A stretch of 64,000 bases of DNA from an uncultured Pseudomonadota bacterium (GCA_964583525.1 CAZOXD010000001.1:47572-111571), one strand, 5' to 3'. Positions 3,702 through 56,542 are shown, counted from the first letter of the stretch. Translations and numbers: made by a program. Notes: generated by a model from the letters alone, not told the origin.

Positions 3702-3889
3702 GATCCCACCGGATTGTTTCGCTTCCCCTCCCAAACGGCGCCGGGATCGGCCTTCCGATGGGAGAAGCAGCCATGGTAACGGCTATTTGACGTGAATTCA
3801 AAAGCCGCACCAGGAACAGGGGCGAAACATTGTGGGTACAGGGCGGGATCAGAGGGGGAGGGAGGAAAATCCATCCGCCACCTCCTGGC

Positions 3890-9870: not shown

Positions 9871-9912
9871 GGACACTCCTCCCTGCTGTCGGTTTCAGCC
9901 TGCCGGGGCCTT

Positions 9913-12294
9913 TCAGGTCAGGCGCCCCGCGATCCTGGACAGATCCCCCATGGAGAGGATGCCGACGGGATGGCGGCGGTCCTCCGGCGATTCGGTCACC
10001 ACAAGCCGGTGCACCTGATGGGAGAGCATCTTGTTGACGGCCTCCTTGAGGGACTCCCCCGGCCAGGTGACGATCACGTCGCGTGTCATCAGGTGCCGGG
10101 GCAACAGGGCGGGCAACTCCATCCGCTCCACGGGGCTGAGCCGGGCGCGGGTCAAATCCGTGGTGGAAATGATGCCCTCCATTTCCTTGTTCTCGTTGGT
10201 GACCACCAGGGCGGAGACCTTCTGCTCGCTCATTTTCACCATCACTTCGGGGAGTGGTTGGTCCGCGCGGCATGTGATCACCCCCAGGTGCATGAACTCG
10301 CCCACGGTGTGGCCTGTAAAACGCTGCTGCTCCTCGTCCTCTGCCGCGGCCATCACGGATTGCGGAAGCTCCTTCACCTCGTGGAAGCCCCGTTGGACGC
10401 AACGCAGGTTGGCCATCACCACTTCCTCGGAGAGGCGGCCGAAGTATTTCCGCAGGGCCACTTCCGCCTGTTTCATCAACTCCTCGTCCTGCAGGTCTTG
10501 TTGTTCCCGGAAGGGCGCGCAGCGCAGGAAAACTCCCAGCAGGACGATTCCCTGCATGCGGATTTCCAGTTCCGGGAGGGGAGATTCCTGGCGTGCGATA
10601 CCGGCGGCATCCAGGTAGAACACCCGGGCCCCGGCCTGGCGCAGGCTTCTGCGGGAGGGCATGGGAAACTGCTTCCACAGCGCCGCCTCGCTTTCCGCCC
10701 CCTCCCCCGGCCACTGCACGAAGGCGATGCCCCGGTCACTCATTCCCTGGAACGGGTTGCCCATCTCCAGGGCGTTGATGGTGTTGATGGGCACGAATTC
10801 GGCGTGGTCCATCTCGCAGTGAGTGCGGATCGGGCTGTGGGCCAGGGTCAGGTAGTAATTGGTGGGCAGGCCCTTCTTCTCCGATCCGTAGCGGGGGTAG
10901 GCCTGCACGTGCAACCCGAACAATTCGGCGGATACGGTGGCGATCACCTTGTTGGTGGTCACCGATCCGAACCCCCCGATGGAATACCCACGCATGGAAA
11001 ACGCGCCCTCAGGGCGGAGATCGGGCGCTTCCGTGGCCTCCAGACTGGAGGGATGGGCGATGTTGAGGGTGAAAAAATCCTTCCGTCCTCCCTCCAGGGC
11101 CTCCACCAGCGCAATCAGGTCGGTGGTGCGCACGTCCCGGCTGCCCAGCCCGGCCGATCCGGAGAGAATTTCGGGAATCCGGTGGATCTGGGGATAGCCC
11201 GGGTGCCCGGTAAGCGCATCGAAAAACGAGGCCTTGAGTTCCGTGGTGAGCGGGTTGCTTTGGGCAATGGGATCGTCCATGCGCTCGATGACCGCCAAAG
11301 CCTTCACGTCCTTGAGCATTTCCACCAACTGGGGCCCGGGAAAAGGCCGAAAGGCCGTGGGGTGGACCACTCCGACCTTGATGCCCCGCTGCTCCCGCAG
11401 ATAATCGGCCACCACTTCCGCCGTTTCCGCGGTGCTGCCCAGCGCCACCAGGGCGTATTCCGCGCCGGCCATGCGATAGCCGTTGACCAGGCCATAGTGA
11501 CGCCCGGTGAGCCCGTGAAATTCTTCCATGGCCACTTCCAGCGCCATGGGCACTTGGCTGGTGTAGAAGCGCTGCGCGATCTTGCCCCGCATGTAGGCTT
11601 CCTGATTCTGCACCACGCCGGACATGATGCCATGCTCGGTATCGAATACGGGCCGCAGCCGCTCCCCGGGCGGTCCGATGTAACTGGCCATCAATTCCGG
11701 CTCGGGCAAGCGGATCGTCTCCAGGGTATGGGTGGTGAGGAACCCGTCCTGCACGTTCATGAAGGGGGTTTCCGTGGCCTCGGCGCAGCGCCGGGAAATC
11801 AGGCACAAGTCGGCGGCCTCCTGGGCGTTGCGGGCGAAGAGCATGCCCCACCCCACATCGGACACTCCCATCACGTCGTCATGGCCCGCATGGACGTTGA
11901 GCGCCTGGCTGGTCAAGGCCCGCGCGCCGATATTGAACACCACCGGAAGCCGCTTGCCGCTGATCACATAGAGTACTTCCTTCATCAGGATCAGGCCTTG
12001 GCCGGAGGTGAAGTTGGTCACACGGCCCCCGGCCAGGGCAAACCCCTCCGCGGCAGATGCTGAGGAATGTTCCGATTCGGCTTCCAGAAAGTGCAGGGTG
12101 TCTCCCCACAGGTTTTTCGCCCCGTTGGCGGCGGATTGGGCATATTGAACGCCCATGTTGGTGGAGGGTGTGATCGGAAAAGCGCAGGCGGCTTGGCTGA
12201 CGTGGGTTTCCACCCATACCACACCCCCAGTGCCATCGTCGGCCACCGGAATTCCGGGGAAGGGAGGCGGGGGCAGGTTGCGCTCTTCTTTCAT
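9913..12294 (-). CDS. Pyruvate:ferredoxin oxidoreductase, N-terminal subunit (domains I-IV) fused to a C-terminal CBS-domain pair
   Basis: PFOR domain I (AACAFPITPST...), transketolase-C-like domain II, domain III, then two CBS motifs (HTVGEFMHLGVITCRAD..., HLMTRDVIVTWPGESLKEAVNKMLSHQVHRLVVTE). Start MKEERNLPPPP chosen inside track ORF 9913..12345. Confidence 0.85.
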   Translation of the reverse strand: MKEERNLPPPPFPGIPVADDGTGGVVWVETHVSQAACAFPITPSTNMGVQYAQSAANGAKNLWGDTLHFLEAESEHSSASAAEGFALAGGRVTNFTSGQGLILMKEVLYVISGKRLPVVFNIGARALTSQALNVHAGHDDVMGVSDVGWGMLFARNAQEAADLCLISRRCAEATETPFMNVQDGFLTTHTLETIRLPEPELMASYIGPPGERLRPVFDTEHGIMSGVVQNQEAYMRGKIAQRFYTSQVPMALEVAMEEFHGLTGRHYGLVNGYRMAGAEYALVALGSTAETAEVVADYLREQRGIKVGVVHPTAFRPFPGPQLVEMLKDVKALAVIERMDDPIAQSNPLTTELKASFFDALTGHPGYPQIHRIPEILSGSAGLGSRDVRTTDLIALVEALEGGRKDFFTLNIAHPSSLEATEAPDLRPEGAFSMRGYSIGGFGSVTTNKVIATVSAELFGLHVQAYPRYGSEKKGLPTNYYLTLAHSPIRTHCEMDHAEFVPINTINALEMGNPFQGMSDRGIAFVQWPGEGAESEAALWKQFPMPSRRSLRQAGARVFYLDAAGIARQESPLPELEIRMQGIVLLGVFLRCAPFREQQDLQDEELMKQAEVALRKYFGRLSEEVVMANLRCVQRGFHEVKELPQSVMAAAEDEEQQRFTGHTVGEFMHLGVITCRADQPLPEVMVKMSEQKVSALVVTNENKEMEGIISTTDLTRARLSPVERMELPALLPRHLMTRDVIVTWPGESLKEAVNKMLSHQVHRLVVTESPEDRRHPVGILSMGDLSRIAGRLT

Positions 12295-12548
12295 GGACGA
12301 ATCCGCTGCGGAGAGTGATCCCGGGAGTCCAGGATTTCGCCCCATGCTAACCGGGGAAAACCGGTTCTGCCTTGATATACATCAAGTTGGACAGAGGCGC
12401 CGTCCACCCCCCGTGAATCCCGGATCGGCTCCCTGGGACGGAGCGAATGAACCGGGATATACCAAATTTCCGAAATCCTCCCTCAAGCATGCCAAAGATT
12501 TAAGCCTATTTGTCAGAAAAGGTCTTTCTCAAATCCCCTCGGATGTGA

Positions 12549-21683: not shown

Positions 21684-24600
21684 TCACCAATACTTTCCGC
21701 CCAGATCGGCGGTCTTGTTTTCAATGGCCTTGCGCGCCAGCAGTTGCAGGTCTTCCACGCTGGCGAAGTACCCCTCCACCGCCGAGACGTCCGCGGGCTT
21801 GCCGTTGAACTGCATGGCCGCGTCCACCCCGAAGGCCGCCTCGAAGCCCTCCCCCAGCACCCGCGCGTGGTTGGAGTAGAACTCCACGGCGTCCTTGGCC
21901 CAGCGCACAAAGCCGCCCTCGGCCAGTTCGCGCCACAGGGCGATGCCCTCCCGGGCCCGCTCCATGACGGCCTCGGTGATCACCATCCCGTTGCGCTGCA
22001 GCTCGTAGCGGTTCACGTGCTCCAACTCGCGGATCCACAGAAACTTGGCCAGGTTGCGCTCGGGATACTTCTCGCGGTCGCGGATGAAGAGCGGGTGATT
22101 GCGCTGAAAGCGCTTGAGGCGGGTGGACTCGTCGTCGTAGCCGTCGTGGGCCACGGTGATCTCCGGAGGCAGCGCCATCGCCCAGCCCTGGCCCTCGTTC
22201 AAGCCCGTCTCCGGGTGCTCGTGCACCATCCCGATGAAGCGCATGCCGATGTGGTTGCGGAATATCTTGGCCGGCAGGTCGATCTTGTCGATGCCCAGCG
22301 GCTCGAAGCCATAGTGCACCTGGCGCATGGCGTAGGCGTTGAATTGGTTGGGGCGCAGGTAGAGCGCCAGGGTTTCCGCCCCGTGCAGCACCTCGTCGTG
22401 ATCGAGCCAGAGAATCCACTGGCAGGACGCCCGCTCCACCGTGGCGTTGCGGGCCTCGTCGAAGCCCACCTCCAGCGGAGACTTGCCGGGGAAGATCCGC
22501 ACGGCGATATCCGGGTAGTCCTCCACAAAGGCGTGGATCACATCCTCCGTGCGATCGCTCGTCGTCTCGTCCAGGGCGATCACCAGCTCGTCGATGATGG
22601 GCGCCGCGCTATCCAGGCAGCGCCGCAGCCGCGCCTCGCCGTCTTTCACGATCATGGCCAGGGTCACGGTCTCGCGCGGGGCCTGCACGGAGAACTTGCG
22701 GGCCATGTCGATGGCGCGGCTGCCTTCCGTGGGCTTGGCGTAGTGGGTGACAAAGCTCCCCAGCGCCTCCCCCCGCGCGGTCTGGCCCGCCGAGGTCATC
22801 ACGATCCCGAAATCCGGGTGATGGCCGAACATCTCGAACAGGTCGGCGCGCTCCAGGTGGTGCAGGTGCGCCCGCCAGGGATGGTGCTGGCGGTACTTCT
22901 GCCCTTCCCAGGGCCCGAAGGGCGTGGTGATCACCATCCGCCCGCCTTCCTTCAGGGACTCGGCCAGCCTGTCGGCCAGGGCGCCCGGATCGTTGACGTG
23001 CTCCAGCACCTCGGCGGCGATGATCAGGTCGAAGGGATCGGCTAAATACCGCATGGGTACTTCATCGCCGAACAGGAACGCCACATTCTTCACATCGTCT
23101 TTTTCCCTCCAGGCCTTGGCCTTCTCGATGTTGGAGGCCACCAGGTCGATCCCGATGAACTCCAGCTTGGGGAAGCGCTTGGCCAGGTTGATGGTGTAAT
23201 GGCCGTGGGCGCAGCCGTAGTCCAGCACCCGCGCTCCCTCGGGCAACTGCCCCACGTGGCGGGCCACCGTCTCGTAGCGGGCGTTGCCGTCCAGTTCCTC
23301 CGGCCCGTACTCCATCCCGCGCTCCGCCTCGTAGCGGTAATAAGCCGCGTAGTGCCCGGCGAAGGTCTCCTCCCGCGCGAAGGCGTAGCACTCGTCCAGG
23401 TCGGCCTCGATCCTGGCGGCCACGGGATGTCCGCCCCAGTGCGGGCTATCCTTCAGGTCATTCGGCGTGGCTTTGATGGCGCGTTCCAACACCTTGATGT
23501 CTGAGAGCCGGTGCAGGTGCTTGCCCACGGCCACGGAGTTGGAGGTCTTAGCGGCGAGGATCTCCGCCACCGTTTCCTCGAAGACGTCCGCCGAGGTTTC
23601 CCAGGTGTGGGGGAAATGCCGGGGGACGCTCATCCCGGGCGAGGTCAGGGCAATCTGTTCCATGAACGCGTCGATGTCCGGCCCGCCGTTCTTCAAGGGA
23701 ATCAGCCCCGCGCCGTCGTACTCGTCCACCGTATCGGGCAGCGCCCCCACGTCCGAGGCGATGATAGGCAGCCCGGCCGCCATCGCTTCCATGGCGGAGA
23801 TGCAACTGGTTTCCTCGAAGTCCGATGGGTAGACCCAGGCGTCGGCGCAGCGCTGCACGCCGGCCAGTTCGGCCTTGGTGAGATAGCCCAGGGCGGTGCA
23901 GTTGGGCAGCGCCTCGATACGGCCCCACAACTCGCGGTAGAGAGGCGCCATCTCGGGCGTGGTGTTGTCGTAGCCGCAGACAAACAGGTGGTAGCGCGGG
24001 GCATCCGGACTCATGGACTCGCTGCACGCCAGGCGCTCCATGATGCCGTCCGGGGCCACCAGGTGTTCCAGGCCGCGCTCCGGACGCGAGACGTAGATCA
24101 GCTTGACCACGTCCCCGCCGCCGCCATGGTGCAGCTTGACCAGATCGCGCATCCGCTCGGCGATGTTATTGGTGCCGGACTCGATCTTGCCCTCGTAGAG
24201 CGCCGGGTCGATCCCGTTGGGGAGCGGCTTGACGATTTCCGGGCGCACGCCCCAGGCCTCGGCCACCTGCAGGCCGTGCCAGGCCGACACCGGGAGCAGC
24301 GCGTCCACGTTCCAGAGCGATTGCGCGGCCAGGGAGCGCAGGCGTTTCCGCGCCAGGTCGTGCAGCCAGAGCAGGTTGCACTTGGAATTCCAGGCGAAGG
24401 CGAACCCCAGCGGGTTGCGCTGGATGACGATCGCGTCGTTTTGCAGGTAGCGGGCCCGGTAGTGAAAGGCCTCGCCCAGCGGCTTCTCGGGGCTGACCGC
24501 GCCGTGATACACGTAGGTCACGCCATCCCAGCGGCCTTGATCGCGGCTGCTGGTGAACACGGTCACGTTGTGATCCCGCGCCACCAGTTCCCGCGCCAGG

Positions 24601-24692
24601 TAGTAGGCCGCCGACTCCGATCCGCCCAGCGACTGCTGGGCAATCGTCTCTCCGTTGAAGGGCATCCCGCCCGCATGAATCGTGATGAACAT
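21684..24692 (-). CDS. Three-domain glycosyltransferase-methyltransferase: GT4 (group 1) glycosyltransferase + class I SAM-dependent methyltransferase + GT2 glycosyltransferase, ~1003 aa, embedded in the phage structural module
   Basis: GT4 N-terminus (MFITIHAGG...GGSESAAYYLARELVARDHNVTVF); MT motif (VLDYGCAHGHYTINLA...FDLIIAAEVLEHV); GT2 (LAMIVKDGEARLRRCLDSAAPIIDELVIALDETTSD...WILWLDHDE). Start chosen at the internal Met of track ORF 21684..24767. Confidence 0.75.
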   Translation of the reverse strand: MFITIHAGGMPFNGETIAQQSLGGSESAAYYLARELVARDHNVTVFTSSRDQGRWDGVTYVYHGAVSPEKPLGEAFHYRARYLQNDAIVIQRNPLGFAFAWNSKCNLLWLHDLARKRLRSLAAQSLWNVDALLPVSAWHGLQVAEAWGVRPEIVKPLPNGIDPALYEGKIESGTNNIAERMRDLVKLHHGGGGDVVKLIYVSRPERGLEHLVAPDGIMERLACSESMSPDAPRYHLFVCGYDNTTPEMAPLYRELWGRIEALPNCTALGYLTKAELAGVQRCADAWVYPSDFEETSCISAMEAMAAGLPIIASDVGALPDTVDEYDGAGLIPLKNGGPDIDAFMEQIALTSPGMSVPRHFPHTWETSADVFEETVAEILAAKTSNSVAVGKHLHRLSDIKVLERAIKATPNDLKDSPHWGGHPVAARIEADLDECYAFAREETFAGHYAAYYRYEAERGMEYGPEELDGNARYETVARHVGQLPEGARVLDYGCAHGHYTINLAKRFPKLEFIGIDLVASNIEKAKAWREKDDVKNVAFLFGDEVPMRYLADPFDLIIAAEVLEHVNDPGALADRLAESLKEGGRMVITTPFGPWEGQKYRQHHPWRAHLHHLERADLFEMFGHHPDFGIVMTSAGQTARGEALGSFVTHYAKPTEGSRAIDMARKFSVQAPRETVTLAMIVKDGEARLRRCLDSAAPIIDELVIALDETTSDRTEDVIHAFVEDYPDIAVRIFPGKSPLEVGFDEARNATVERASCQWILWLDHDEVLHGAETLALYLRPNQFNAYAMRQVHYGFEPLGIDKIDLPAKIFRNHIGMRFIGMVHEHPETGLNEGQGWAMALPPEITVAHDGYDDESTRLKRFQRNHPLFIRDREKYPERNLAKFLWIRELEHVNRYELQRNGMVITEAVMERAREGIALWRELAEGGFVRWAKDAVEFYSNHARVLGEGFEAAFGVDAAMQFNGKPADVSAVEGYFASVEDLQLLARKAIENKTADLGGKYW

Positions 24693-24806
24693 CTTCCCTG
24701 ATGCTCCCGGTTTGGGCCGCCTCCCCATTGACAGGATAGGCGACGAATTAGATAATTTTCTTAGCATTCAAGCCAAGGATGGCTCCCTCATTGGAAAGGA
24801 TTCCTC

Positions 24807-25575: not shown

Positions 25576-26538
25576 TCAAGAGCTCGACGTGGTGTTGGTG
25601 ACCAGGGCGATCAGAGGCTGGGAGACGATCTTCTCGTCCTGGTAATAGCCCACCTCCACCTCGTCGCAGTGGCGGCGAGTATCGTAGGGGTGGCGCTCCA
25701 CCTGCCGGTTGGGAAGCCCGGGGGCGGCCCAGCGGAAGCGGTAGCCCGCGCTCGGGGTCTGCGTGGAAGGCGCGTCCGGCGCGTAATACAACGCCACGTG
25801 ATCGGCCCAGATGCGATCCAGGCTCATGGCGATCGCTTCTTCGGCCGTGTTCTTGTAGGCCCCGCCCACGATGATCTCCATTTCCAGCACCGCCTCGGCC
25901 TGCTGCACACTGGGGTAGATTCCACCCCCCGTCACGTTGGGGTTGGTGGACTTGTCGATCACGGATGCGTTGCGGCGGAAGTTCCGCCAGGCTAGGCCGG
26001 AGAAGACCGCCTTGTTGGGGCGGTAGCCCGTGGCGTCCTCCACCTGATCGATCTTGGTGAGCAGGTCGTTGATGGGATCGGAGTTGCTGAAGTCCGACCA
26101 GGCCGACCCCACCGCCGCATAGGTGCCCACATTGGCGAGGGTCAACATCAGGGCGGCCACGCGGATTTCCTCGTCCAGCGCCAGACCGTCCATCACCCGG
26201 TTGACCCGCCCTTCCTCGAACTGCTGGATGAAGATGGGATCCATGTTGGCCCGGTCTTCGATGGTCACATCGGCCTTCAGCGCGTAGTTATCGCAGTGGA
26301 AGCCGTCCGAGGAGACGCGCGAATGGATCTTGTTGGCCTCGCCGCCACGGGAGCGGCGGGTGTTTTCCTGGCGGAACAAGTCCGCCTGCTCGAAGATCAC
26401 GTACTTGTCGGTCTGCTTGGGCACCGTCACCAGCGGGAAAACCCGGTCGGCGATAAAGCCCATGGGCCGATAGTTGATCGCGATTTGCGAGAGGTGCTGG
26501 TCGATGTGCAGCTCCCGTCCAGTTCCGTATGCTGACAT
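25576..26538 (-). CDS. Major capsid protein (DUF2184/E-like family candidate)
   Basis: 320 aa following protease/scaffold and DUF2190 genes; paralogous to 51653..52660 (shared motifs NYRP.GFIADR.FP, FIQQFEEGR, W.RNFRRN..VIDK.TNP.V.GGG.YPS, PYDTRRH). Confidence 0.65.
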   Translation of the reverse strand: MSAYGTGRELHIDQHLSQIAINYRPMGFIADRVFPLVTVPKQTDKYVIFEQADLFRQENTRRSRGGEANKIHSRVSSDGFHCDNYALKADVTIEDRANMDPIFIQQFEEGRVNRVMDGLALDEEIRVAALMLTLANVGTYAAVGSAWSDFSNSDPINDLLTKIDQVEDATGYRPNKAVFSGLAWRNFRRNASVIDKSTNPNVTGGGIYPSVQQAEAVLEMEIIVGGAYKNTAEEAIAMSLDRIWADHVALYYAPDAPSTQTPSAGYRFRWAAPGLPNRQVERHPYDTRRHCDEVEVGYYQDEKIVSQPLIALVTNTTSSS

Positions 26539-38995: not shown

Positions 38996-39439
38996 CTACT
39001 CTCCCGGCTCCTTGCCCCCGTTGGCCACCCCGTCATAGCCGAACGGCTCCGGCTTGGGTTCCTTCACTTTGGCCTCCGCCTCGGCCAGCTTGTATTTTCC
39101 CACCTGGTTCCGAAGTTTGATGTTTTCCTGCGTTAGCTTATCCAGGTGATCGTTGAGGCGGGAAATGTCGGCCTTGTATTCCTTGACGATCCCCAGCACC
39201 GCGCTTTCCTCCAGCATCGCACCCGGCCCGCTGAAGATATTCCCTTCCCCCGTCTCAAGCCAATGCCGCTCGATCTTGAACACGCAGCTGATGGCCGTGA
39301 GCAGGAGGGGTGAAGTGTTGCCGCCTTTGAGCAACCGGCTCACATGAGTCGGCGTGACCCCCAGCCTTTCAGCAAAAACATTCTGCCTTAATCCGAGTAC
39401 GGACAAAAGAATTTCCAGGCGTTTCGGGAAGTTTTTCAT
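38996..39439 (-). CDS. XRE-family HTH repressor (prophage c/CI-like)
   Basis: HTH LGLRQNVFAERLGVTPTHVSRLLKGG; divergent from the ner/cro-like gene. Confidence 0.7.
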   Translation of the reverse strand: MKNFPKRLEILLSVLGLRQNVFAERLGVTPTHVSRLLKGGNTSPLLLTAISCVFKIERHWLETGEGNIFSGPGAMLEESAVLGIVKEYKADISRLNDHLDKLTQENIKLRNQVGKYKLAEAEAKVKEPKPEPFGYDGVANGGKEPGE

Positions 39440-40926: not shown

Positions 40927-41457
40927 ATGAGCGAGAATCCCATGCAATTGAATACAACCCGCTTCGGAACTATCGGGATCAATGACGGCCAGATGCTGAC
41001 TTTCGGAGACGGATTGCTAGGTTTCCCCGAACACACCCGTTACGCATTGATTGAGGCCGAGATCGGCGATCCCTTCCTGTTGTTGAGATCGTTGGTCGAT
41101 AAGTCCGTCAGATTCCTGGTGATCGAACCATCGCATTTCTTCCCCTCCTACTATTTCACGGTAAAGAAGGCGCAGATCAAGGCATTGGATACCGACGATG
41201 TCGATGATCTCCAGGTGCTCGTCCTAGTGACCATAGCCCCCAACATCCTGGACGTTACCGCCAATCTGCTGGGGCCGATCGTCTTCAACAAGAAAAACCG
41301 CATCGGCATGCAGATATTGCTCGACGATTTCAATTTAAGCACTCGGGAGCCTCTCTTCAATGACCGGCCGGATAACGAGGCCGAAGCAGTCGGCATGGTG
41401 ACTCGGGAAAACCGCACAGCCTCCGCGCGCGCAGCCATCCACGGTCTGGAGGCCTAG
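40927..41457 (+). CDS. fliW: FliW-like protein (flagellar assembly factor / CsrA antagonist family) with a ~30-aa C-terminal extension
   Basis: TRFGTIGINDGQMLTFGDGLLGFPEH..LIE......FLLLRSLVDKSVRFLVIEPSHFFPSYYF...LVLVTIAPNI..VTANLLGPIVFN follows the FliW consensus along the whole core. Confidence 0.7.
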   Translation: MSENPMQLNTTRFGTIGINDGQMLTFGDGLLGFPEHTRYALIEAEIGDPFLLLRSLVDKSVRFLVIEPSHFFPSYYFTVKKAQIKALDTDDVDDLQVLVLVTIAPNILDVTANLLGPIVFNKKNRIGMQILLDDFNLSTREPLFNDRPDNEAEAVGMVTRENRTASARAAIHGLEA

Positions 41458-43818: not shown

Positions 43819-44186
43819 CCGATCAAAAATACATCGGATTTCTCGAATCCAGGAACGCCTGTTTGCACACGACCGTTGTGCGCCTACTGGCTGTCATGGA
43901 GAAAAGCGGAGCTGGCGATATCCATTGGATAAAAACCGGAGAAAGAATTCAGGAAACCGCCGCACAAGGAACCTCTGAAGCCACAGCCGAACGATTTATC
44001 AAGTGTTTTGGTGAGATGTCGGAAGTGACAGATGCCGCAAAGGCGTTTCTAACAACCGGAACGCCGGAGACAAAGAGCGCATTGCAAAAAAAACTGGCGA
44101 TATATGAACGGGGAGAAAACCGCCGCACCCGCAATATTCAGGCCTTGGCTAAGAAAGGCGAACCCTGGTGGGACGCGAAGCCATGA
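43815..44186 (+). CDS. Small hypothetical protein
   Basis: Internal start MTDQKYIGFLESRNA... Confidence 0.4.
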   Translation: MTDQKYIGFLESRNACLHTTVVRLLAVMEKSGAGDIHWIKTGERIQETAAQGTSEATAERFIKCFGEMSEVTDAAKAFLTTGTPETKSALQKKLAIYERGENRRTRNIQALAKKGEPWWDAKP

Positions 44187-45838
44187 CCGACCCTATCCAC
44201 ACCCTCTATCTGGACACCCTGGGCGCGGACAAGGCCGCCCGCAAGGCCGCCGTCGCGGAGACCGCCGCGCGGCTGGGCCTCCAGTCCGACACTGTGCGCA
44301 AGAAGCTGGACAAACTGGGCCGCGCCCGCTCAGAGCCCCGCGCGCGCGCAACCGATCCCGAGTTGGAAGCAGCCGTAAATATCGTGTGGGAATTCAAGCT
44401 GACCCCGGACGGGCCCATCGCCACCGAAGCCGCGCTGCAACTGGCGATCAGCGAGGGCAGGCTGTTCAAGGCCTGGCCGGTGGGTTCCCTCAACGCCGCC
44501 GCCAAGCGGCTCGGCCTGAGCGAACAGGCCGCCTACTGCCGGCGCATGGAAGCTCCCCACGCCAACCGCACCCACCGCGTGGACGCTTCCGGTTCGCGTC
44601 ACTTCCAGGTAGTGGAGGATGCCGGGGACGGGGACTGGCTGCTCCGGGTCTGCCGGGCCGAGCAGCGCAACAAGCGCTGGCGCGGGGAGGATGCCAGCAA
44701 CCTGCTCTGGATCGTGACGGTCATCGACGACTATTCGCGCGTTTTCAACGTGGGCTACCAGGTGGCTCCGGGGGAAAGCGCGGCCATGATCCAACGCTTC
44801 CTGGTGGAAACCTGGCGCGACGCCCAGCCGCGCGGCCTGCCCGAGGTGCTGATCGCGGACAACGGATCGTTCGCCAAGGAGACCTCCTCCAAGGCGCTGC
44901 TGGCCTTCTTCGACATCCAACTGATCACCGGCCAGCCCTACAATTCCCAGCGCAACGGGCGGGTGGAGCGGCCCATCCGCACCATCAAGGAGGGCTTCGA
45001 GCGCCCCATGCTGGCCACCCATGACCTGGGATCGATCGTGCGGCTCTCGCAACTCAAGGAAGAGTTGAAGGTTTTCATCGCAGGAGTGAACGGGAGCCGC
45101 CATCCCATCAGGCGCGACCGCACAAAGCGCGAGGACTGGGAGCGCGGGATGGCCTTCCGAGAGTTGCGCGAGTGCCCCCAGGACGCGCTCCACTACGCCA
45201 CCTGGCGCGAGCAGCGCACCGTCACGGCCGAGGGCGCCGTCCAGCACAAGAACAAGCTGCTGGAAATCGTGGATCTCCCCTACGGTCTGCGCGGCCGCAA
45301 GATTACGCTCTGTTACAACGCCTCCGGAGAAATCATCGCCGAGCACGAGGGCGCGCGCTACGCCGTGCGCGGCTTTGTCCCGGTGACCCTGGGCGGCTAC
45401 GAGAGCCAAGCCCATACCGGGCGCGGCGATCCGCCCTCCAAAGCCGCCGCCGCCAAGGCCGAGGCCCGCCAGAAGACGGGCGTGGGCTTCCATGCGCCGG
45501 AGCGCCAAGCCGCCATCAAAGCGGCCGGCGAGCAGCCCCATGCCCCGGGCGAGCAGGCGCTCCCCGGCGCGGGCGCGCGGGTGATTACACCGCCGCCGCG
45601 CATCCGGGACGCGGTGCAGGTAATATCCGGCAAAACCGATCCCTTCCAGATCGCGTCCGACCGCTACAAAACCGTGGACGAGGCCGTCGCGGCGGTGCAG
45701 GAAATCGTCGGCAAGCCCAGCCACGTCTGGCTCAACAAGGAGCAGCGCCAAACGCTGGAGAAGATTCTGCGCGGCTTCGATCTGGATCGCCGCAAAACCG
45801 CCGCGCTGGCCGATCGACTGCGCCAGCAAAGCGCGTGA
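44183..45838 (+). CDS. Mu-like DDE transposase (MuA/rve-family integrase core)
   Basis: ...WIVTVIDDYSRVFNVGYQVAPGES...VLIADNGSFAKE...GQPYNSQRNGRVERPIRTIK... DDE triad with N-terminal DNA-binding region. Confidence 0.8.
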   Translation: MTDPIHTLYLDTLGADKAARKAAVAETAARLGLQSDTVRKKLDKLGRARSEPRARATDPELEAAVNIVWEFKLTPDGPIATEAALQLAISEGRLFKAWPVGSLNAAAKRLGLSEQAAYCRRMEAPHANRTHRVDASGSRHFQVVEDAGDGDWLLRVCRAEQRNKRWRGEDASNLLWIVTVIDDYSRVFNVGYQVAPGESAAMIQRFLVETWRDAQPRGLPEVLIADNGSFAKETSSKALLAFFDIQLITGQPYNSQRNGRVERPIRTIKEGFERPMLATHDLGSIVRLSQLKEELKVFIAGVNGSRHPIRRDRTKREDWERGMAFRELRECPQDALHYATWREQRTVTAEGAVQHKNKLLEIVDLPYGLRGRKITLCYNASGEIIAEHEGARYAVRGFVPVTLGGYESQAHTGRGDPPSKAAAAKAEARQKTGVGFHAPERQAAIKAAGEQPHAPGEQALPGAGARVITPPPRIRDAVQVISGKTDPFQIASDRYKTVDEAVAAVQEIVGKPSHVWLNKEQRQTLEKILRGFDLDRRKTAALADRLRQQSA

Positions 45839-45850
45839 GAGGGCAGAGAA

Positions 45851-46030
45851 ATGAAACACCTGTTGAAAAAACGGACACCGATTCACATAAAGCATCTCCG
45901 AGCTGCCGCCAAAGCGTTCGAGGAAATGATCGATCTTGGGGAGGAATTCCGGGGATCGGGGACAGACAGTGATCAGCGGTACCGCCTGATGAAAGAGCTC
46001 AGGGAATTCGCGGCTTGGCTTGAGGGATGA
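45851..46030 (+). CDS. Small hypothetical protein (59 aa)
   Basis: Manual ORF MKHLLKKRTPIHIKHLRAAAKAFEEMIDLGEEF...; below the track size cutoff. Confidence 0.35.
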   Translation: MKHLLKKRTPIHIKHLRAAAKAFEEMIDLGEEFRGSGTDSDQRYRLMKELREFAAWLEG

Positions 46031-46050
46031 TTGAACGGAGAGAGCAACCC

Positions 46051-46167
46051 ATGATCTTCACTATCATCGTGCTGGCCGGGTTTCTCGCGGCCGGAATCGT
46101 CCTGGGCTGGCTGGTGAAACACGCCGTCAAAGCCACGGTGGAAATCTTCTCGCAGTTCAACCGCTGA
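46051..46167 (+). CDS. Small membrane peptide (38 aa)
   Basis: MIFTIIVLAGFLAAGIVLGWLVKH...; GGAGAGAG RBS. Confidence 0.35.
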   Translation: MIFTIIVLAGFLAAGIVLGWLVKHAVKATVEIFSQFNR

Positions 46168-46188
46168 AACCAGGGAAAGGAGAAAGCG

Positions 46189-46362
46189 ATGCGCGCATTG
46201 ATCTTGATCGAGGACGACGGCAAGGGCGGGGTCAACCTGGAAATAGGGGTCACCACTATCGACTATGACCCCGAAAGCCCCGCGCTGCTGGTGCACCGCG
46301 AACTGGTGGATCGGGCCTTGGAACTGACATCCAAACCCAAACCGGGAAAGGAGCAGGGATGA
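46189..46362 (+). CDS. Small hypothetical protein (57 aa)
   Basis: MRALILIEDDGKGGVNLEIGVTT...; strong RBS GGAAAGGAGAAAG; ATGA overlap with the next gene. Confidence 0.4.
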   Translation: MRALILIEDDGKGGVNLEIGVTTIDYDPESPALLVHRELVDRALELTSKPKPGKEQG

Positions 46363-46811
46363 GTATTCCAAGCGAACATTTTGAAAATGCTTTTCGCGGC
46401 GGCGGCGGGATCAGGGCCGAATGTGATTTTTGTGGGCGAGTCCATTTTACAACGCTTCCATTCGCAGGGGATTGGGAGGAAGGAGAATTTGAAAGCCTCA
46501 TTGAAAGAGCAGAAAACAACCCCGATCAATACATCGCAGAAGGCCGATACGATTCAATAACATATGGAACCCTGGCGGGGCGCACCTATGTTCTTGATTG
46601 CCCATGCGTCGAGGAAAAGGTGCTCCCTTATGAGAACTTCATTTGGAACTACAGGCACCAGATTCTTTCCTACCACCAAATGAGAACGAAGTCGGAGCGA
46701 GATGAAGCCGAGCGTAACCATGAAGAGGTGAGCGACCAATACAAACCTTGGTGTGCCCCAACAACCCGCCAACAGGAAATAAACAGAGCCAGATCAAGGA
46801 TGCTCTCATGA
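46359..46811 (+). CDS. Cys-containing hypothetical protein (lower GC)
   Basis: 150-aa ORF; CDFCGRVHF...LDCPC. Confidence 0.45.
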   Translation: MSIPSEHFENAFRGGGGIRAECDFCGRVHFTTLPFAGDWEEGEFESLIERAENNPDQYIAEGRYDSITYGTLAGRTYVLDCPCVEEKVLPYENFIWNYRHQILSYHQMRTKSERDEAERNHEEVSDQYKPWCAPTTRQQEINRARSRMLS

Positions 46812-47746
46812 CCCCCACCAAGCCCGAAATGCTGGAGTTCCTGGGGCTGGCCCGGGATCCCTTCGCCAAGCTGCGCGAGGCGGGGGACGTCTGGCCAAGC
46901 GTGACGTTGCGCTCGGCGCGGCACCTGGTGGACTACGCGCTCTCGCATTCCGAAATGGTGGCCATGCTGGGGGGCTTCGGGGTGGGCAAGACCACCCTCC
47001 TCCACGCCGCCCTGGAGTCGGTCGAGCAAGGGCCCGGAGAAACCATCGCCATTCACGTGGCTGGCTCCAAGGACACCCTGCGCATCTCGGCCGTGGTGGA
47101 GGAGATGCTGCGCGGGCTGGGCAACGACCGCCTCCCGCAGAGCGAGACCGCCCGCCGCCGGATGCTGAAAGCGGCGCTGGTGGGCGCCTTCGGCCAAGAC
47201 AAGCGGATCGTGCTGGTGATCGACGAGGCCCACCGCATGAAGGGCATCACGCTGAAAGCGCTCAAGGAACTCCACGAGCAGAGCCGCCACGCCTGGCGCG
47301 AGGCGACCTTCGCCATTCTGCTGGCCGGGCACCGGCAACTGACCGCCCTGGCCCATTTCGAGGCGCGGGACTTCCTGGCGCGGCTGGAGTCCCACAACAT
47401 TCTGCACCTGAGCGCCCTCAGCGCCGGGGAAGCCGCCATGTACATCTGCCACCGGCTGGACGCCGCGGGCGCTCCGCAACTGCTGGAGATGGACACGCTG
47501 GAACTCCTGGCGCGGCGCGGGACGCCGCTGGAGATCAACCGCACCATGTGGCGGATCTTCGAGGCGGCGTACCTGAAGAACGTGAAACCGATCACGCCGG
47601 AGCTGGTGCGGGCCGTGCTGCCCACGCCCCCGGCCCCGCCGGACGCAAGCGCCGGAAACATCGACGACCTATTGAAGGGTCTGAGCGAACCGAACGGAGG
47701 CAGGGATGCCGCAAGCAGCAACATCAGAACCGCCCATGGTGAGTGA
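46808..47746 (+). CDS. MuB-like AAA+ ATPase (transposition target DNA activator), paralog 1
   Basis: Walker A GGFGVGKTT, Walker B VLVIDEAH; conserved N-terminus (MLEFLGL..DPF..L, DYALSHSEMVA). Confidence 0.7.
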   Translation: MTPTKPEMLEFLGLARDPFAKLREAGDVWPSVTLRSARHLVDYALSHSEMVAMLGGFGVGKTTLLHAALESVEQGPGETIAIHVAGSKDTLRISAVVEEMLRGLGNDRLPQSETARRRMLKAALVGAFGQDKRIVLVIDEAHRMKGITLKALKELHEQSRHAWREATFAILLAGHRQLTALAHFEARDFLARLESHNILHLSALSAGEAAMYICHRLDAAGAPQLLEMDTLELLARRGTPLEINRTMWRIFEAAYLKNVKPITPELVRAVLPTPPAPPDASAGNIDDLLKGLSEPNGGRDAASSNIRTAHGE

Positions 47747-47975
47747 GGCGGAATCGATTTTGGACGACGTGCGGGAGCTTCTGGCGATGATCCCGGAGAT
47801 GGAAGCCACGCGGAAGGTATTCGGCAAAAGGCTGGCGGACACCCTGGAGAAGATGCGCGTCTTCAACCACCAACACGCGGCGCACCTCCCGCCCGGCACG
47901 GTGCGGCTGCTGGAAGACATCTACGGCCAGGTGGAATCCTACGCCGGGGTGATCAAGCGCGAGTTGCGCCAATGA
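47706..47975 (+). CDS. Small hypothetical protein
   Basis: 89 aa; GGAGG RBS; overlaps the end of MuB paralog 1. Confidence 0.35.
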   Translation: MPQAATSEPPMVSEAESILDDVRELLAMIPEMEATRKVFGKRLADTLEKMRVFNHQHAAHLPPGTVRLLEDIYGQVESYAGVIKRELRQ

Positions 47976-48219
47976 TTGCCGGAGCGCTCCCGGCCGGGCT
48001 GATTAAACCCCGGCGCCCGCGGGAGGAGCGGCGCGTGTTTGCCAACGGCACGTCATATCCAGCCGCTCCTGGGCGCCGGAATAGGAATCGCCCGCGGGAC
48101 TCATAACCCCGCAAAGGGCCTGCGGTTTCTGTTGATTGCCGGAGGCCTCCGGTTCGACTCCGGGGCCCGGGCGGGAGCGCACTTTTTCCAACGCTGGATG
48201 AGCAACGAGGAGACACCTC

Positions 48220-49245
48220 ATGAACCCACTAATGCCGGAAATCCTGGAGCACTTCGGACTGGAGCGCAACCCGTTCGGGAAGCTGGCCGGTGATGGGGAA
48301 TTCTACGCCTCGCCGGAATTCCGCAGAGCCTACGCCACGGTGGACTACGCGCTCTCGCATTCCGAAATGGTGGCCATCGTGGGGGACGTGGGCTCGGGCA
48401 AGTCCGAGGCCATGGTGGCCGTGAAGGAGCATCTCAAGGCGCGGCCCGAAGCCCCGGTGAACTTCATCGAGGTGCTGCACCCGGACAAGGGGACGATGAA
48501 GATCGGCTCGGTGCTCGAAGCCTTCATCCAGATGCTGGAGATCGCGCGGCCCGGGCAATCCCAGCAGCGGCGGGCCTGGCACGTCAAGTTCGCAATCCAG
48601 GAGCGCTGGCGCCAGGGCGAGCGCTTCATTCTGATCATCGACGAGGCGCACCGGCTCAGCGGGCCGTTCCTGAAATCGCTCAAGGAGTTGCACGAGCAGA
48701 CCCGCTTCGGCCACATGGCAGCCCTGATCGGGATCGTGCTGCTGGGGCACGAGAGCCTGCTGAGCAATTACCAAAAGGTGGCGTCGGACGTGTACCAGCG
48801 CCTGGACGCCGGGCACGTCTGCACGATGGGGAGCATGACCCCGCTGGAAATCGATGAATACATCGCGCATCGGGTTGCGGCGGTCAACGGGAACGGCCTG
48901 TTCGACGGCGAGGCCCGCCGCGCGGTGGGGCGGCTGGCGTCATCGCCGTTGGGCGCGAACCGCATCTGCGCCAAGCTGCTGGCCACGGCCTACACGCGCG
49001 GCCAGGACGCCGTGACCCTGGAGGAAGTCTACGCCGCCTACGACCGCCGCGCTTTGGCCGACCTGCTGGGGCTGAGCGCTCCGGCCATCGCCGGGCGGGC
49101 CGGGATCGGCCGCAGCACGGTGCACGACGTGTTCGATGGGCGCGGCAAGGGGAGCGCCGCCAAGGTGGATGCCGTGTTGCGTGAGGCCATGAGCGCGGCC
49201 GGGCAGCAGGAAGCGGATCGGCAATCAGAAGCGAAGGAGGCGTGA
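48220..49245 (+). CDS. MuB-like AAA+ ATPase, paralog 2
   Basis: Walker A GDVGSGKSE, Walker B ILIIDEAH; same conserved N-terminal motifs as paralog 1 (ILEHFGLERNPF, DYALSHSEMVA). Confidence 0.7.
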   Translation: MNPLMPEILEHFGLERNPFGKLAGDGEFYASPEFRRAYATVDYALSHSEMVAIVGDVGSGKSEAMVAVKEHLKARPEAPVNFIEVLHPDKGTMKIGSVLEAFIQMLEIARPGQSQQRRAWHVKFAIQERWRQGERFILIIDEAHRLSGPFLKSLKELHEQTRFGHMAALIGIVLLGHESLLSNYQKVASDVYQRLDAGHVCTMGSMTPLEIDEYIAHRVAAVNGNGLFDGEARRAVGRLASSPLGANRICAKLLATAYTRGQDAVTLEEVYAAYDRRALADLLGLSAPAIAGRAGIGRSTVHDVFDGRGKGSAAKVDAVLREAMSAAGQQEADRQSEAKEA

Positions 49246-49246
49246 G

Positions 49247-49654
49247 ATGGATGCCGGCGAAATTTTGTTGCTGCTGCGGCATTGCAAATTGGCGTTCGAC
49301 CGAGGCTGGGAGGATCTCTGCGCCAACGGGCTGTCGATCCGTGAATCGCACACGCTCCTGCTCGTTGAGAAGGATCCCGGAATGCGGGTGGGACAAATCC
49401 GGGATGCGATCGACGTCCACAAGAACCACGCAACGCGTATCGTCAACACCCTGGAGGCGTCGGGGCTGGTGCGGAGGGAAAGAGAAAACTCGCGACATTG
49501 CCGGGTTCTTATCACTCCTGCCGGGCGGAGCAAGGTCAAGACGATCCGGGAAAACCTGAACCGTTTGGCCTCGTATTACTGGGGCGATCTGCCGGCCGCG
49601 GATCTGGAAGCGATGGAGCGGGTCGTCAACCATCTGCTGGAGCGCAGCCGATGA
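49247..49654 (+). CDS. MarR-family transcriptional regulator
   Basis: 135 aa with winged-helix region (ESHTLLLVEKDPGMRVGQIRDAIDVHKNHATRIVNTLEASGLV). Confidence 0.6.
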   Translation: MDAGEILLLLRHCKLAFDRGWEDLCANGLSIRESHTLLLVEKDPGMRVGQIRDAIDVHKNHATRIVNTLEASGLVRRERENSRHCRVLITPAGRSKVKTIRENLNRLASYYWGDLPAADLEAMERVVNHLLERSR

Positions 49655-50148
49655 AGCCCGGAGATCCCATCGGAAAGCAGAAGATCAAGCTGCTGCACGT
49701 GCTGTTCGCCAAGTTCGACCCGGACGCCGTGGAGGCCATCCGGGACGGCATCGCCGAGGTTACCGGGGACACCTCCACCCTTTCCCTCAACGAGGCGCAG
49801 GCCTGGGAAGTCATCAACGGACTTTGCCGCGAGTTGCGCCAGAACAATCCCGCGCCGATCTGCGTGGTCTGGTGCGAGGGCTACACCATGGGGCGGCTGC
49901 CCAGGGGCGGCATCGATTGGGAGACGCGGATTCCCAGCCAGGCGCAGATCTGGGGGATTCACAAGCTGATGCGCGGCGCCGGAGTGCTGGACGGCCAGGC
50001 CTTCCTGGCGGCGCGGTTCCCGAAGATCGTCCCGGACGGAGTGATCCGCACCGCGCGGGAGGCGTGGCAGGTCTCCAAAAGCCTGCGGGCGATGGGAGCC
50101 AACCGAACTGAACCGCGCCAGGGAGGCGCGGCCGCAATGGGAGCCTGA
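49651..50148 (+). CDS. GemA-like (Mu gp16/DUF1018) regulatory protein
   Basis: Internal start MKPGDPIGKQKIKLLHVLFAKF...; family placement approximate. Confidence 0.45.
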   Translation: MKPGDPIGKQKIKLLHVLFAKFDPDAVEAIRDGIAEVTGDTSTLSLNEAQAWEVINGLCRELRQNNPAPICVVWCEGYTMGRLPRGGIDWETRIPSQAQIWGIHKLMRGAGVLDGQAFLAARFPKIVPDGVIRTAREAWQVSKSLRAMGANRTEPRQGGAAAMGA

Positions 50149-50456
50149 TGGAAAATAAGCGCAAGGAAGCGCGGCGAACCGTGACCGTGCAGGTGGCCGC
50201 GGACATGCTTCACGCATCGGAGGATACCGTGCGGCGGCTGGTCAAGGCCGATCAGATCGAGGCCTACCGGCGCGGCAAGCGGATCATCCTGCTGTATTGG
50301 GATTCGGTGGAAGCGTTCATCGAATCCGAGAAGTCCATCGGCCCTTACGATCACGAGCTGCGCGGCGACAAGGCCGAGGCCCGGCGCCGCGAAATCCGCA
50401 CCCGGCGCGCCGAGCTGGAAGCGCGGCAACTGGGACTTTTGGGGGACGAGGCATGA
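50148..50456 (+). CDS. Excisionase-type HTH DNA-binding protein (at the position of Mu Mor)
   Basis: HTH TVQVAADMLHASEDTVRRLVKADQIEAYRRGKRI. Confidence 0.45.
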   Translation: MENKRKEARRTVTVQVAADMLHASEDTVRRLVKADQIEAYRRGKRIILLYWDSVEAFIESEKSIGPYDHELRGDKAEARRREIRTRRAELEARQLGLLGDEA

Positions 50457-51652: not shown

Positions 51653-52660
51653 ATGAACGCCATGGAAGGCTTGAAGCAAAATCCATCGCGGCTGCTGGCC
51701 GAGCGGGCAGCGGAGAAAATGCAGGAGCTGGGTCTCTCCTACAACGAGGCCGCTGAATATGTGCTGATGACCAACCCGGGGCTAGCGAAGCGCTACCAAG
51801 AGTTCACGCTTGAAGGGCCACCGCCACCGCCTGATTGTCCCATCGATCACCATCTTTCCCGGGCGGCCAACAACTACCGGCCGGCCGGATTCATCGCGGA
51901 CAGGATTTTCCCCACGGCCCCTTGCAGGGAAGAAGACGGGGAGATGTACCACGCCATGGCTGACGTGACGCTGGAAGGAAGGGGCAGCGCCAATCCGTGT
52001 TTCATTCAGCAATTCGAGGAAGGGCGGACACACAGGACGCTGGACTCGCTCTACCTGGATTGGGAACAGCGGATGGGGAGGATGTTGCTCGCTCCCGAGA
52101 GCAGGATTCCCGTGCGGACGCCGTTCTATCCCTGGAGCATTTATGCCGAGGATACGCCCCTCGATGATATTTACGAGGCGATGGCCGAAGTGGAAAACGC
52201 CACCGGAAAGGAAGCCAACCGGATCCTGTTTTCCGGCACGGCCTGGCGGCACTTCCGGCGCAATCAGAAGGTGATCGACAAAGCCACCAATCCTCACGTG
52301 AGCGGGGGCGGTTTGTATCCATCGACCCACCAGATAGAAGCCCTGCTGGGGCTGCAGGTGCTGGTGGGGAACGCTTGGTACAACGCCGCCGAGGAAGCCA
52401 TGCCTTTGAACCTGACTCAAGTCTGGGGCGCGGGAGTGCTGGTGTACCGGGCCGCGGAACGGAGCAACATTCAGGAACCGTCCTTGGGCTGGAATCTGCG
52501 CTGGACGCCGCCCGGAATGAGCGGGCCGTGGGTGGTGAAGCGTATGCCTTACGACACGCGGCGGCATCTTTCGGAGATCCTTGTAGCCTGCCGGGGCGGG
52601 GAGATGCTGAGCAAGCCGGCGCTGGGCTGCCTGATTCCCAACGTAGTGGAGGCGCCATGA
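51653..52660 (+). CDS. Second major-capsid-like paralog (same family as 25576..26538) with a ~50-aa N-terminal extension, located in the early arm
   Basis: Shares motifs with the late-arm capsid gene (ANNYRPAGFIADRIFP, CFIQQFEEGR, WRHFRRNQKVIDKATNPHVSGGGLYPS, MPYDTRRH). Confidence 0.6.
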   Translation: MNAMEGLKQNPSRLLAERAAEKMQELGLSYNEAAEYVLMTNPGLAKRYQEFTLEGPPPPPDCPIDHHLSRAANNYRPAGFIADRIFPTAPCREEDGEMYHAMADVTLEGRGSANPCFIQQFEEGRTHRTLDSLYLDWEQRMGRMLLAPESRIPVRTPFYPWSIYAEDTPLDDIYEAMAEVENATGKEANRILFSGTAWRHFRRNQKVIDKATNPHVSGGGLYPSTHQIEALLGLQVLVGNAWYNAAEEAMPLNLTQVWGAGVLVYRAAERSNIQEPSLGWNLRWTPPGMSGPWVVKRMPYDTRRHLSEILVACRGGEMLSKPALGCLIPNVVEAP

Positions 52661-56127: not shown

Positions 56128-56542
56128 TACTCATTCCCCCACTCATCCACCTACCACCATCTTTTTCTGATAGGCCATAAGCCAGTCACAGGAATAGCAG
56201 TTTGGCATGTTTGAAGGGTTTCCCCGGAAATTCCTGACAGGGAGCACAGGGGGGGGATCGAACAGAAACCCATAGAAAATCGACCCCATGATGCCGGCCC
56301 AATCCAGCCGGGATTGTGGCGTGATTGACACGCCCCGGCCGGGAACTGACCTGAGAAAACCAGCCCGGAGACCCTCCCAGGGAACCCAATTGCAAATCTA
56401 AATCTTTGGAATCAATGATGATTATGATCGGAATCACATTGGGGTCAACCTTTTGCATTCAGGGAGGAAGTATCGTGCTTTTGCAGCGATGGAAGGTTAT
56501 TTCGAATTGGAAATTCGTGAATTTGTCAACATTGAGGTGACC

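Follow-up and report, generated by a model that had tools for sequence, protein, structure and literature searches.

Two tandem MuB-like AAA+ genes in the early operon of a B3-like transposable prophage

In transposition, a single AAA+ protein, such as MuB, TnsC, TniB or IstB, serves as a switch with several tasks, and how target capture, transposase activation and immunity are combined is a matter of debate. A 64,000-nucleotide (nt) stretch of DNA from an uncultured Pseudomonadota bacterium (GCA_964583525.1, CAZOXD010000001.1:47572-111571; the window in the following) raises the question of what a transposable phage does with two such proteins. The window carries a B3-like transposable prophage of ~44 kb (roughly 12.4-56.3 kb), and in its early operon a DDE transposase gene (A) is followed by small open reading frames (ORFs) and two MuB-like ATPase genes, here called B1 and B2, with another small ORF, 's', between them (Table 1). 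The original prediction, made from the sequence of this locus, had proposed that one of the two ATPases might have been repurposed, for example as a target-immunity, anti-defence or regulatory factor. We favour, with a probability of roughly 0.55, the reading that B1 and B2 both serve transposition with divided labour.

Family, fold and descent of the two ATPases

B1 and B2 share 36% identity across 273 residues (E 7e-47), and hhalign aligned the B1 family with the B2 family at a probability of 100% (E 1.3e-68) over the whole AAA+ module (residues 1-264 of B1 and 2-271 of B2). Both proteins pass the 27-bit cut-off of Pfam AAA_22 (E 3.3e-14 for B1 and 1.5e-13 for B2), both match PHROG 296 'DNA transposition protein' (E 2e-16 and 2.9e-26, respectively), and both give near-equal full-module matches to the ExeA-like model TIGR03015 (63.5 and 60.2 bits, far under its cut-off of 324.5). 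B1 also matches PHROG 2630 (E 7.5e-20). When B1 and B2 were searched against deposited phages by tblastn, they matched the genes annotated as transposase B or DNA transposition protein in B3, PM105, BcepMu, phiSHP3 and similar phages. Sequence comparison thus identifies B1 and B2 as true paralogs with a similarity far beyond chance, in line with the original description of both as MuB-like paralogs, and assigns them to the ExeA-like AAA_22 'DNA transposition protein' family of B3/BcepMu-type phages.

The structure models agree with this assignment. AlphaFold2 (AF2) models had a mean predicted local distance difference test score (pLDDT) of 87.9 for B1, with residues 297-312 disordered, and of 87.0 for B2, with a helical bundle at residues 276-324. 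Cdc6/Orc1 proteins were the top Foldseek matches of both. For B1, the MuB filament 8xvb ranked 6th (E 1.9e-9, TMt 0.71) and TnsC 7m99 reached a TMt of 0.74; for B2, the TnsC structures 7m99 and 8fcu matched and MuB 8xvb was outside the top 50. When sequence profiles were searched against the PDB, MuB 8xvb was the best match across the AAA+ core, at E 1.1e-4 with the B2 family and E 0.065 with the B1 family. B1 and B2 are both predicted to fold as initiator-clade AAA+ proteins, like MuB and TnsC. The original prediction had named a different AAA+ family for one copy as the result that would speak against it; neither copy turned out to belong to one, since the two share one family and this fold.

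Other affiliations were less successful. Phage-MuB_C (PF09077) gave no match at E <= 0.01 in B1 or B2, whereas Mu B matches it at E 4.9e-34. Pfam TniB (PF05621) scored 17.8 bits with B2, below its cut-off of 22.4, and did not match B1; no TniQ- or TnsA-like family was found among the neighbouring genes by Pfam, PHROG or the annotation of the source contig. We discarded a cellular ExeA/GspA or PEP-CTERM-associated ATPase as the identity of B1 and B2 because of the sub-cut-off TIGR03015 scores, the position of the ExeA clade outside the phage proteins (see below) and the prophage early-operon context. PADLOC yielded weak P-loop matches (mad8, TRIP13) and no credible defence family for B1 or B2, and membership in a defence or anti-defence family was rejected on this ground.

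We mapped the functional residues of MuB (PMC11292022) onto an alignment with B1 and B2. The original prediction had quoted the two Walker A strings correctly (GGFGVGKTT and GDVGSGKSE) and had described them as diverged. The divergence is not a functional one: both strings fit GxxGxGK[ST], and the Walker B motif DEAH and the arginine finger are kept in both proteins. Among orthologs, Walker A reads GKTT in B1 and GK[ST][EDG] in B2, with GxxGxGK[ST] and hhhhDEAH invariant. The Walker A Lys/Thr, the Walker B DE and the arginine aligned with the MuB finger R224 are likewise invariant in the B1 and B2 families. The DNA-binding loop R150-R151-K152 of MuB aligns with ARRR in B1 and with QRR, HRR or QKR in B2. 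Because the alignment with Mu B is remote (~17% identity), these loop and residue equivalences are provisional. The sensor-II arginine (R268 in MuB) is replaced by Leu in B1, B2 and the B3-type B proteins (motif P-L), where only N271 is conserved. From their motifs, B1 and B2 are probably ATPase-competent and able to bind DNA.

The main difference between B1 and B2 lies in the C-terminus and was overlooked in the original prediction. Both proteins start directly with the FGLxxxPF motif (residues 9-19), and there is no N-terminal helix-turn-helix (HTH) domain. At its C-terminus, B2 has an XRE-type HTH, which gives a weak HTH_31 match at residues 280-320 of the window protein; the B2 ortholog of locus L017 passes the Pfam cut-offs for both HTH_31 and HTH_3. 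B1 has a proline-rich disordered tail in place of the HTH, and no relic HTH was found in any frame between B1 and B2. The C-terminal HTH of B2 and the N-terminal HTH of B3-type B proteins have no detectable similarity, and we dropped the idea that one is a circular permutation of the other.

Whether related transposable phages carry one copy or two was one of the checks suggested in the original prediction. Homologs of B2 led us to loci L002, L003, L004 and L014, and a transposase search independent of B to L015/L016, both of a metagenome-assembled genome (MAG) labelled Candidatus Glassbacteria (GCA_019456185.1), and to L017. A tblastn census detected two B genes in the window, L002, L003, L004, L014, L015 and L017; L016 breaks off just after B1. 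All related loci with enough sequence (7/7) carry the series B1-s-B2. The census detected one B gene in B3, BcepMu, phiSHP3, Mae-JY22, PM105 and the IMG/VR loci L011-L013, and B2 matched at a single place in 68/68 of the deposited phage records with a match (INPHARED).

The lineage is rare, and its two ATPase types are about equally common in it, since a profile search of 1.84 billion representatives returned ~7 of the B1 type and ~5 of the B2 type (138 matches at E <= 1e-30). Scans of GTDB genomes gave no relative, metagenome scans gave L014 only, and IMG/VR scans gave single-B relatives only, at 29% identity. Identities among the two-copy loci are 52-54% for A, 41-50% for B1 and 43-49% for B2, and the GC content at third codon positions (GC3) is 0.86-0.89 for all three genes. 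Over all orthologs in related loci, A is 45-54% identical. B1 and B2 evolve about equally slowly, slightly faster than the transposase.

Such values leave little room for a redundant or decaying second copy without a distinct role. Tandem duplicates are common in phage genomes, which is the point in favour of this explanation, but both copies are kept in every one of the seven loci even though the proteins have diverged to 41-50% identity. In addition, both have intact frames, all motifs and equal rates of change, each forms a well-supported clade of its own, and their GC3 is that of the core genes. We regard a redundant duplicate as very improbable.

Neighbour-joining trees were bootstrapped with 300 replicates in one case and with 200 replicates (70 sequences) in the other. 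The B1 clade was supported by 96% and 100% of the replicates, the B2 clade by 94% and 98.5%, and the grouping of B1 with B2 by 72% and 83%, respectively. Sister to B1 and B2 are single-copy AAA+ proteins with a C-terminal HTH, such as the B protein of L011; the B3/BcepMu clade comes next, and cellular ExeA falls outside the phage B proteins (90% in the 300-replicate tree). Because B1 and B2 are sister clades, the duplication is placed within the lineage. In L011, an IMG/VR contig, the single B gene directly follows the transposase gene. Its product aligns end to end with B2, including the HTH (31% identity, E 4e-44), and with B1 over the AAA+ core only, and we therefore regard B2 as the ancestral form. 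The trees and alignments indicate that a single B gene with a C-terminal HTH was duplicated once, after which the ancestral form persisted in B2 and the HTH disappeared from B1.

The same observations bear on the idea that the two ATPases come from two mobile elements, one nested in the other, or from an assembly artefact. The foreign composition of two ORFs beside B1 (orf59 and orf150, see below) would be compatible with it. Against it, the gene order is the same in independent assemblies (ENA, Logan, JGI and NCBI MAG), there is neither a second transposase nor a pair of internal ends, and B1 and B2 are each other's closest relatives. The probability of this explanation is close to negligible.

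Shared work or a new role for one copy

Both copies are equally kept in the seven loci, and we therefore argue that both are needed; the role of each is not shown by this conservation. In the reading that we favour, the MuB-equivalent ATPase would have been duplicated once in the phage lineage, and both copies would since have been kept as a fixed module, B1-s-B2. B1 and B2 would work with the DDE transposase and share the jobs of MuB, that is, ATP-dependent coating and delivery of target DNA, transposase activation and target immunity. The two may form joint assemblies on DNA. B1 would probably act together with 's', and B2 would use its HTH for an additional contact with DNA or protein. In Mu, monomeric MuB activates MuA, and the ATP-bound MuB filament selects targets and confers immunity; the role of the MuB HTH domain is explicitly called unresolved (PMC11292022).

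The link between B1 and 's' is visible at the nucleotide level. ORF 's' is present at the same position in 7/7 loci (window, L002, L003, L004, L014, L015/L016 and L017), with identities of 20-38% overall and of 23-38% in the comparison that gave the values for A, B1 and B2. Its GGAGG Shine-Dalgarno (SD) sequence and its ATG lie within the last codons of B1 in every locus checked (47690-47746 in the window). The coupling signal GGAGGnnnGGATG is kept in the window, L002, L003 and L004, and SD sequence and spacing vary in L017 and L016. By this arrangement, 's' is translationally coupled to B1 and made together with it. It also explains an apparent motif, GGxDA, in the tail of B1 and the start of most 's' proteins with 'MP', as these B1 codons also encode the SD sequence and start of 's'. 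We consequently rejected GGxDA as a docking peptide: it is GGAGG plus ATG(CC) read in the frame of B1. A weaker 'D/E-x-LL' helix lies upstream of GGxDA in the B1 tail. The 's' protein matched no family in Pfam, PHROG, PADLOC or NCBIfam. That it is the HTH domain split off from B1 was rejected as well, with an hhalign probability of 0.1% and no homology between 's' and the HTH of B2.

A more specific form of the favoured reading would make B1, 's' and B2 a three-part target-DNA activator, in which the activities of MuB are split over co-assembling paralogs and the B2 HTH and 's' serve as adaptors. This proposal is tentative, and we consider it doubtful as a whole. If it were true, this transposition system would be the first known to rely on a pair of paralogous AAA+ regulators and would amount to a natural separation-of-function form of MuB.

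Several points weigh against a shared role in transposition. The comparison covers seven loci of one narrow lineage, and the monophyly of B1 and B2 reaches 72-83% by a distance method. Co-assembly and any particular split of functions are what we infer, with B1 and B2 modelled as monomers. The MuB-like action of B3-type B proteins itself rests on annotation and on D3112 genetics. B1 and B2 lack the sensor-II arginine that both MuB (R268) and cellular ExeA possess, and since it is absent, the ATPase chemistry of B1, B2 and the B3-type B proteins may differ from that of MuB. Finally, a regulatory role would be equally compatible with the HTH of B2 and with the MarR gene beside it.

The last point leads to the main competing explanation, in which one copy no longer serves transposition: B2 would regulate phage development as a DNA-binding protein dependent on ATP, or would act in immunity or anti-defence, with B1 alone as the MuB equivalent, or the reverse. 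B1 and B2 differ by a whole DNA-binding domain, and B2 adjoins the MarR gene, with the conserved 165-aa and HTH_17 genes a short way downstream. ORF 's' lies between B1 and B2, and two loci have in addition a structured element (stem plus U-run) there that could insulate the expression of B2. B1 has the stronger basic loop, with ARRR aligned to RRK of MuB, and by fold MuB 8xvb ranks 6th for B1 and beyond the top 50 for B2. Against this explanation, the sequence profiles favour B2, which matches the MuB profile (E 1.1e-4 versus 0.065) and PHROG 296 (2.9e-26 versus 2e-16) better than B1 does. The single B of L011, directly after its transposase, has the architecture of B2, which makes the HTH form ancestral and not a novelty. 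Moreover, all catalytic motifs are kept in both copies, and PADLOC found no credible defence match. Beyond the weak P-loop matches from PADLOC, nothing pointed specifically to immunity, anti-defence or regulatory repurposing. We consider the repurposing of one copy unlikely, and prefer two ATPases that both take part in transposition.

We found no report in the literature of a transposition system with a pair of paralogous ATPase genes; in the papers found, 'two TnsC' always refers to protomers or rings and never to two genes. In a survey of transposable prophages, three protein families had frequent paralogs and the ATPase was not among them (PMC8705779). The B1/B2 pair is the mark of a group of transposable phages not described before, which occurs rarely in public data and is associated with uncultivated bacteria. 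A stable split into an HTH-bearing and an HTH-less copy, together with a coupled small partner, is a natural experiment on the functions of MuB. The practical consequences are modest, unless having two ATPases turns out to alter target choice.

The locus and its prophage

The genes were defined by an ORF scan of the window and by gene calls on the source contig (ENA metagenome scaffold ZHAO22-1_SAMN11268109 scaffold_269), which agree on the ORFs (Table 1). The MuA-like gene, the four small ORFs after it and B1 were found on the + strand where the original prediction had placed them, and so was B2 after one further small ORF, which is 's'. The small ORFs had also been credited with good ribosome-binding sites. 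An SD-like purine-rich sequence indeed lies 5-12 nt 5' of the start of every ORF except the transposase gene; the strings after the transposase are, in order, GAGAGGG, GGAGAG, AAGGAG, AAGGAG, AAGGA, GGAGG and GAGGAG. The transposase ATG is preceded by ccctggtgggacgcgaagcc, which is not SD-like. The stop codon of orf150 overlaps the start of B1 (ATGA).

Table 1. Features of the transposase-ATPase locus in window coordinates
Feature	Position	Strand	Description
DDE transposase A	44183-45838	+	551 aa; Mu/B3-type; same start in the source-contig gene call
orf59	45851-46030	+	59 aa; small accessory ORF
orf38	46051-46167	+	38 aa (46 aa from start 46027); hydrophobic, membrane-type peptide
orf57	46189-46362	+	57 aa; small early protein, kept in relatives
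orf150	46359-46811	+	150 aa; Cys motifs CxxC...CxC; window-specific
ATPase B1	46808-47746	+	312 aa; MuB-type AAA+ without HTH
ORF 's'	47706-47975	+	89 aa; 41-nt overlap with the end of B1
Non-coding gap between 's' and B2	47976-48219	+	244 nt; structured element at 47984-48180
ATPase B2	48220-49245	+	341 aa; MuB-type AAA+ with C-terminal XRE-type HTH
MarR-family winged-helix protein	49247-49654	+	MarR_2 E 1.5e-8, MarR E 3.3e-8; directly 3' of B2
165-aa ORF and HTH_17 protein (102 aa)	49651-50456	+	end of the conserved block

The separation of A from the first ATPase gene by small ORFs, which the original prediction had set against the adjacent A and B genes of Mu (A at 1328-3319, B at 3358-4296), is real and a trait of the lineage, with 1-3 small ORFs between A and B1 in the relatives. 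The ORFs themselves differ in their conservation. For orf59 (GC 0.53, GC3 0.60, compared with 0.86-0.89 in A, B1 and B2), no convincing ortholog was found in the relatives. The composition of orf150 is foreign, given its GC of 0.49 and GC3 of 0.49; it matched nothing in Pfam, PHROG, NCBIfam or PADLOC and had no ortholog in the relatives. Judged by composition and distribution, orf59 and orf150 are likely to be recently acquired cargo between the transposase gene and B1. The lack of orthologs and of any family match, together with the foreign GC content, led us to reject two ideas about orf150, that of a TniQ-like selector and that of the N-terminal domain missing from B. The orf38 peptide (MIFTIIVLAGFLAAGIVLGWLVKH...) has a counterpart in a 40-aa hydrophobic ORF at the same place in L003. 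The orf57 protein is ~31% identical to a 59-aa ORF of L003 and a 57-aa ORF of L002 at the same position, with the common pattern M..LILIEDN..G.V...PESPAL.

On the other side of the pair, a MarR match occurs at the same place in L002, L004 and L017; the ORF found there in L003 and L015 (135-137 aa) gives no MarR match, and L014 has no such ORF. The MarR-like gene is 24-36% identical among the two-copy loci. The 165-aa ORF has identities of 35-52% across loci, and HTH_17 (PF12728) is recorded for the 102-aa ORF. These two genes follow B2, or the ORF in the MarR position where there is one, in 6/7 loci; in L017, several more small ORFs intervene. We considered GemA as an identity of the 165-aa ORF and, with no Pfam or NCBIfam match, left it unnamed.

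The gap between 's' and B2 holds a strongly folded segment. At 47984-48180, the minimum free energy was -130.7 kcal/mol (z -3.79), and 0/200 shuffled sequences folded as well. The predicted structure has a long 9-bp closing stem followed by ACUUUUU, several hairpins, and a T-arm-like hairpin (CCGG/UUCGACU/CCGG). The window shares conserved blocks of this element with L004 (~1732-1943), and 12 pairs, including 4 of the closing stem, show compensatory changes; the element was found in these 2/7 loci and not in the other five. ARAGORN detected no tRNA or tmRNA in it, Rfam gave nothing below E 2, and there was no match in viral contigs or phage genomes. We therefore rejected a tRNA, a tmRNA or a known RNA family on the ARAGORN and Rfam results. 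By its position and predicted fold, the element could be a small RNA or an attenuator before B2.

The prophage is bordered on the left by host genes for a 2-oxoacid:ferredoxin oxidoreductase, which lie at 8179-12345, and on the right by an OmpA-family gene that begins at 56453. Just inside both borders lies an imperfect inverted repeat (12465-12496 and 56201-56232; AATTTCC...CATGCCAAA), which may represent a pair of transposase-binding end sequences. The late genes, on the - strand, encode the terminase large subunit, a Mu-type portal fused to a gpF-like domain, a protease/scaffold, the major head protein and the tape measure. The repressor gene (38996-39439, -) diverges from the early operon on the + strand, which includes a CII-like gene and the transposase gene. 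The transposase matched Pfam rve at E 1.4e-5, under the Pfam cut-off, and PHROG 310 'transposase' at E 8.7e-21 over residues 16-496. It is 23-25% identical to transposase A of phiSHP3 and Lsp-JY19, and no deposited phage transposase is closer.

Some further genes of the prophage were recorded. A gene with a superinfection-immunity match (Pfam Imm_superinfect; ~38.6-39.0 kb, -, positions 441-767 of L001) adjoins the repressor gene. The early operon contains a 176-aa gene (40927-41457, +) with a recorded Pfam FliW match and no PHROG match. FliW is a flagellar assembly factor and an antagonist of CsrA, and a FliW-like gene is unusual cargo for a transposable phage. Among the late genes, a 1027-aa ORF (21684-24767, -) matches glycosyltransferase and methyltransferase families and not structural proteins.

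The prophage also has a second major-head-like gene, located in the early operon (51653-52660, +). Its product is 40% identical (E 2e-75) to the Mu-T-type protein encoded at 25576-26538 (-), which is the real major head protein of the prophage; the second protein has an N-terminus of its own of ~60 aa and is missing ~39 internal residues. L002 and L004 have unrelated ORFs in this position, and the gene is thus specific to the phage in the window. At its far end (~53.9-56.1 kb, +; positions 16175-17908 of L001), the early operon encodes dATP/dGTP pyrophosphohydrolase-like, DUF1643 and DUF5131 proteins. DUF5131 also occurs in L002, L004 and L015, in two cases beside a D12-class methyltransferase. 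These three genes may form a DNA-modification or nucleotide-pool module.

Comparison with known systems

The closest counterparts of B1 and B2 are the B proteins of B3/D3112/BcepMu-type phages (PHROG 296), which belong to the same family and the same tree clade. The prophage of the window shares the divergent arrangement of repressor and early operon with Pseudomonas phage B3, unlike Mu, and in both the B genes lie downstream of the DDE transposase gene in that operon. B1, B2 and the B3-type proteins have the FGLxxxPF motif, the Walker A and B motifs and the arginine finger in common, and all of them lack the sensor-II arginine. The differences lie in copy number, size and gene order. B3-type phages have one B of ~390-445 aa, with an N-terminal HTH-like region of ~105-140 extra residues (B3, BcepMu, PM105, phiSHP3), whereas the prophage of the window has two copies of 312 and 341 aa that lack this region. 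The A and B genes abut or overlap in B3, BcepMu, phiSHP3, PM105 and Mae-JY22, but 1-4 small ORFs lie between A and B1 in the lineage of the window. The latter also has a coupled small gene between its two copies.

Mu B, too, works with the DDE transposase of a transposable phage, and is encoded by a single gene beside A. Its initiator-clade AAA+ fold, P-loop, Walker B, arginine finger and basic DNA loop align with those of B1 and B2. In contrast to B1 and B2, Mu B has an N-terminal HTH, a Phage-MuB_C domain and a sensor-II arginine. TnsC and TniB have a similar fold (7m99, TMt 0.62-0.74; 7plh, 8fcu and 7rzy) and the same general role, being AAA+ adaptors that connect an rve-type transposase with target DNA. 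Unlike Tn7- and Tn5053-like elements, the element in the window lacks TniQ, TnsA and TnsD, and its TniB match is under the cut-off.

The archaeal Orc1/Cdc6 proteins were the top fold matches, including the heterodimer on DNA 2qby, and have a DNA-binding helical domain C-terminal to the AAA+ lid. Orc1/Cdc6 proteins and clamp loaders have no sequence link to B1 and B2 beyond the AAA+ core, and their biology is different. Orc1/Cdc6 pairs and clamp loaders nevertheless provide a precedent for paralogs that share labour within one DNA-bound complex.

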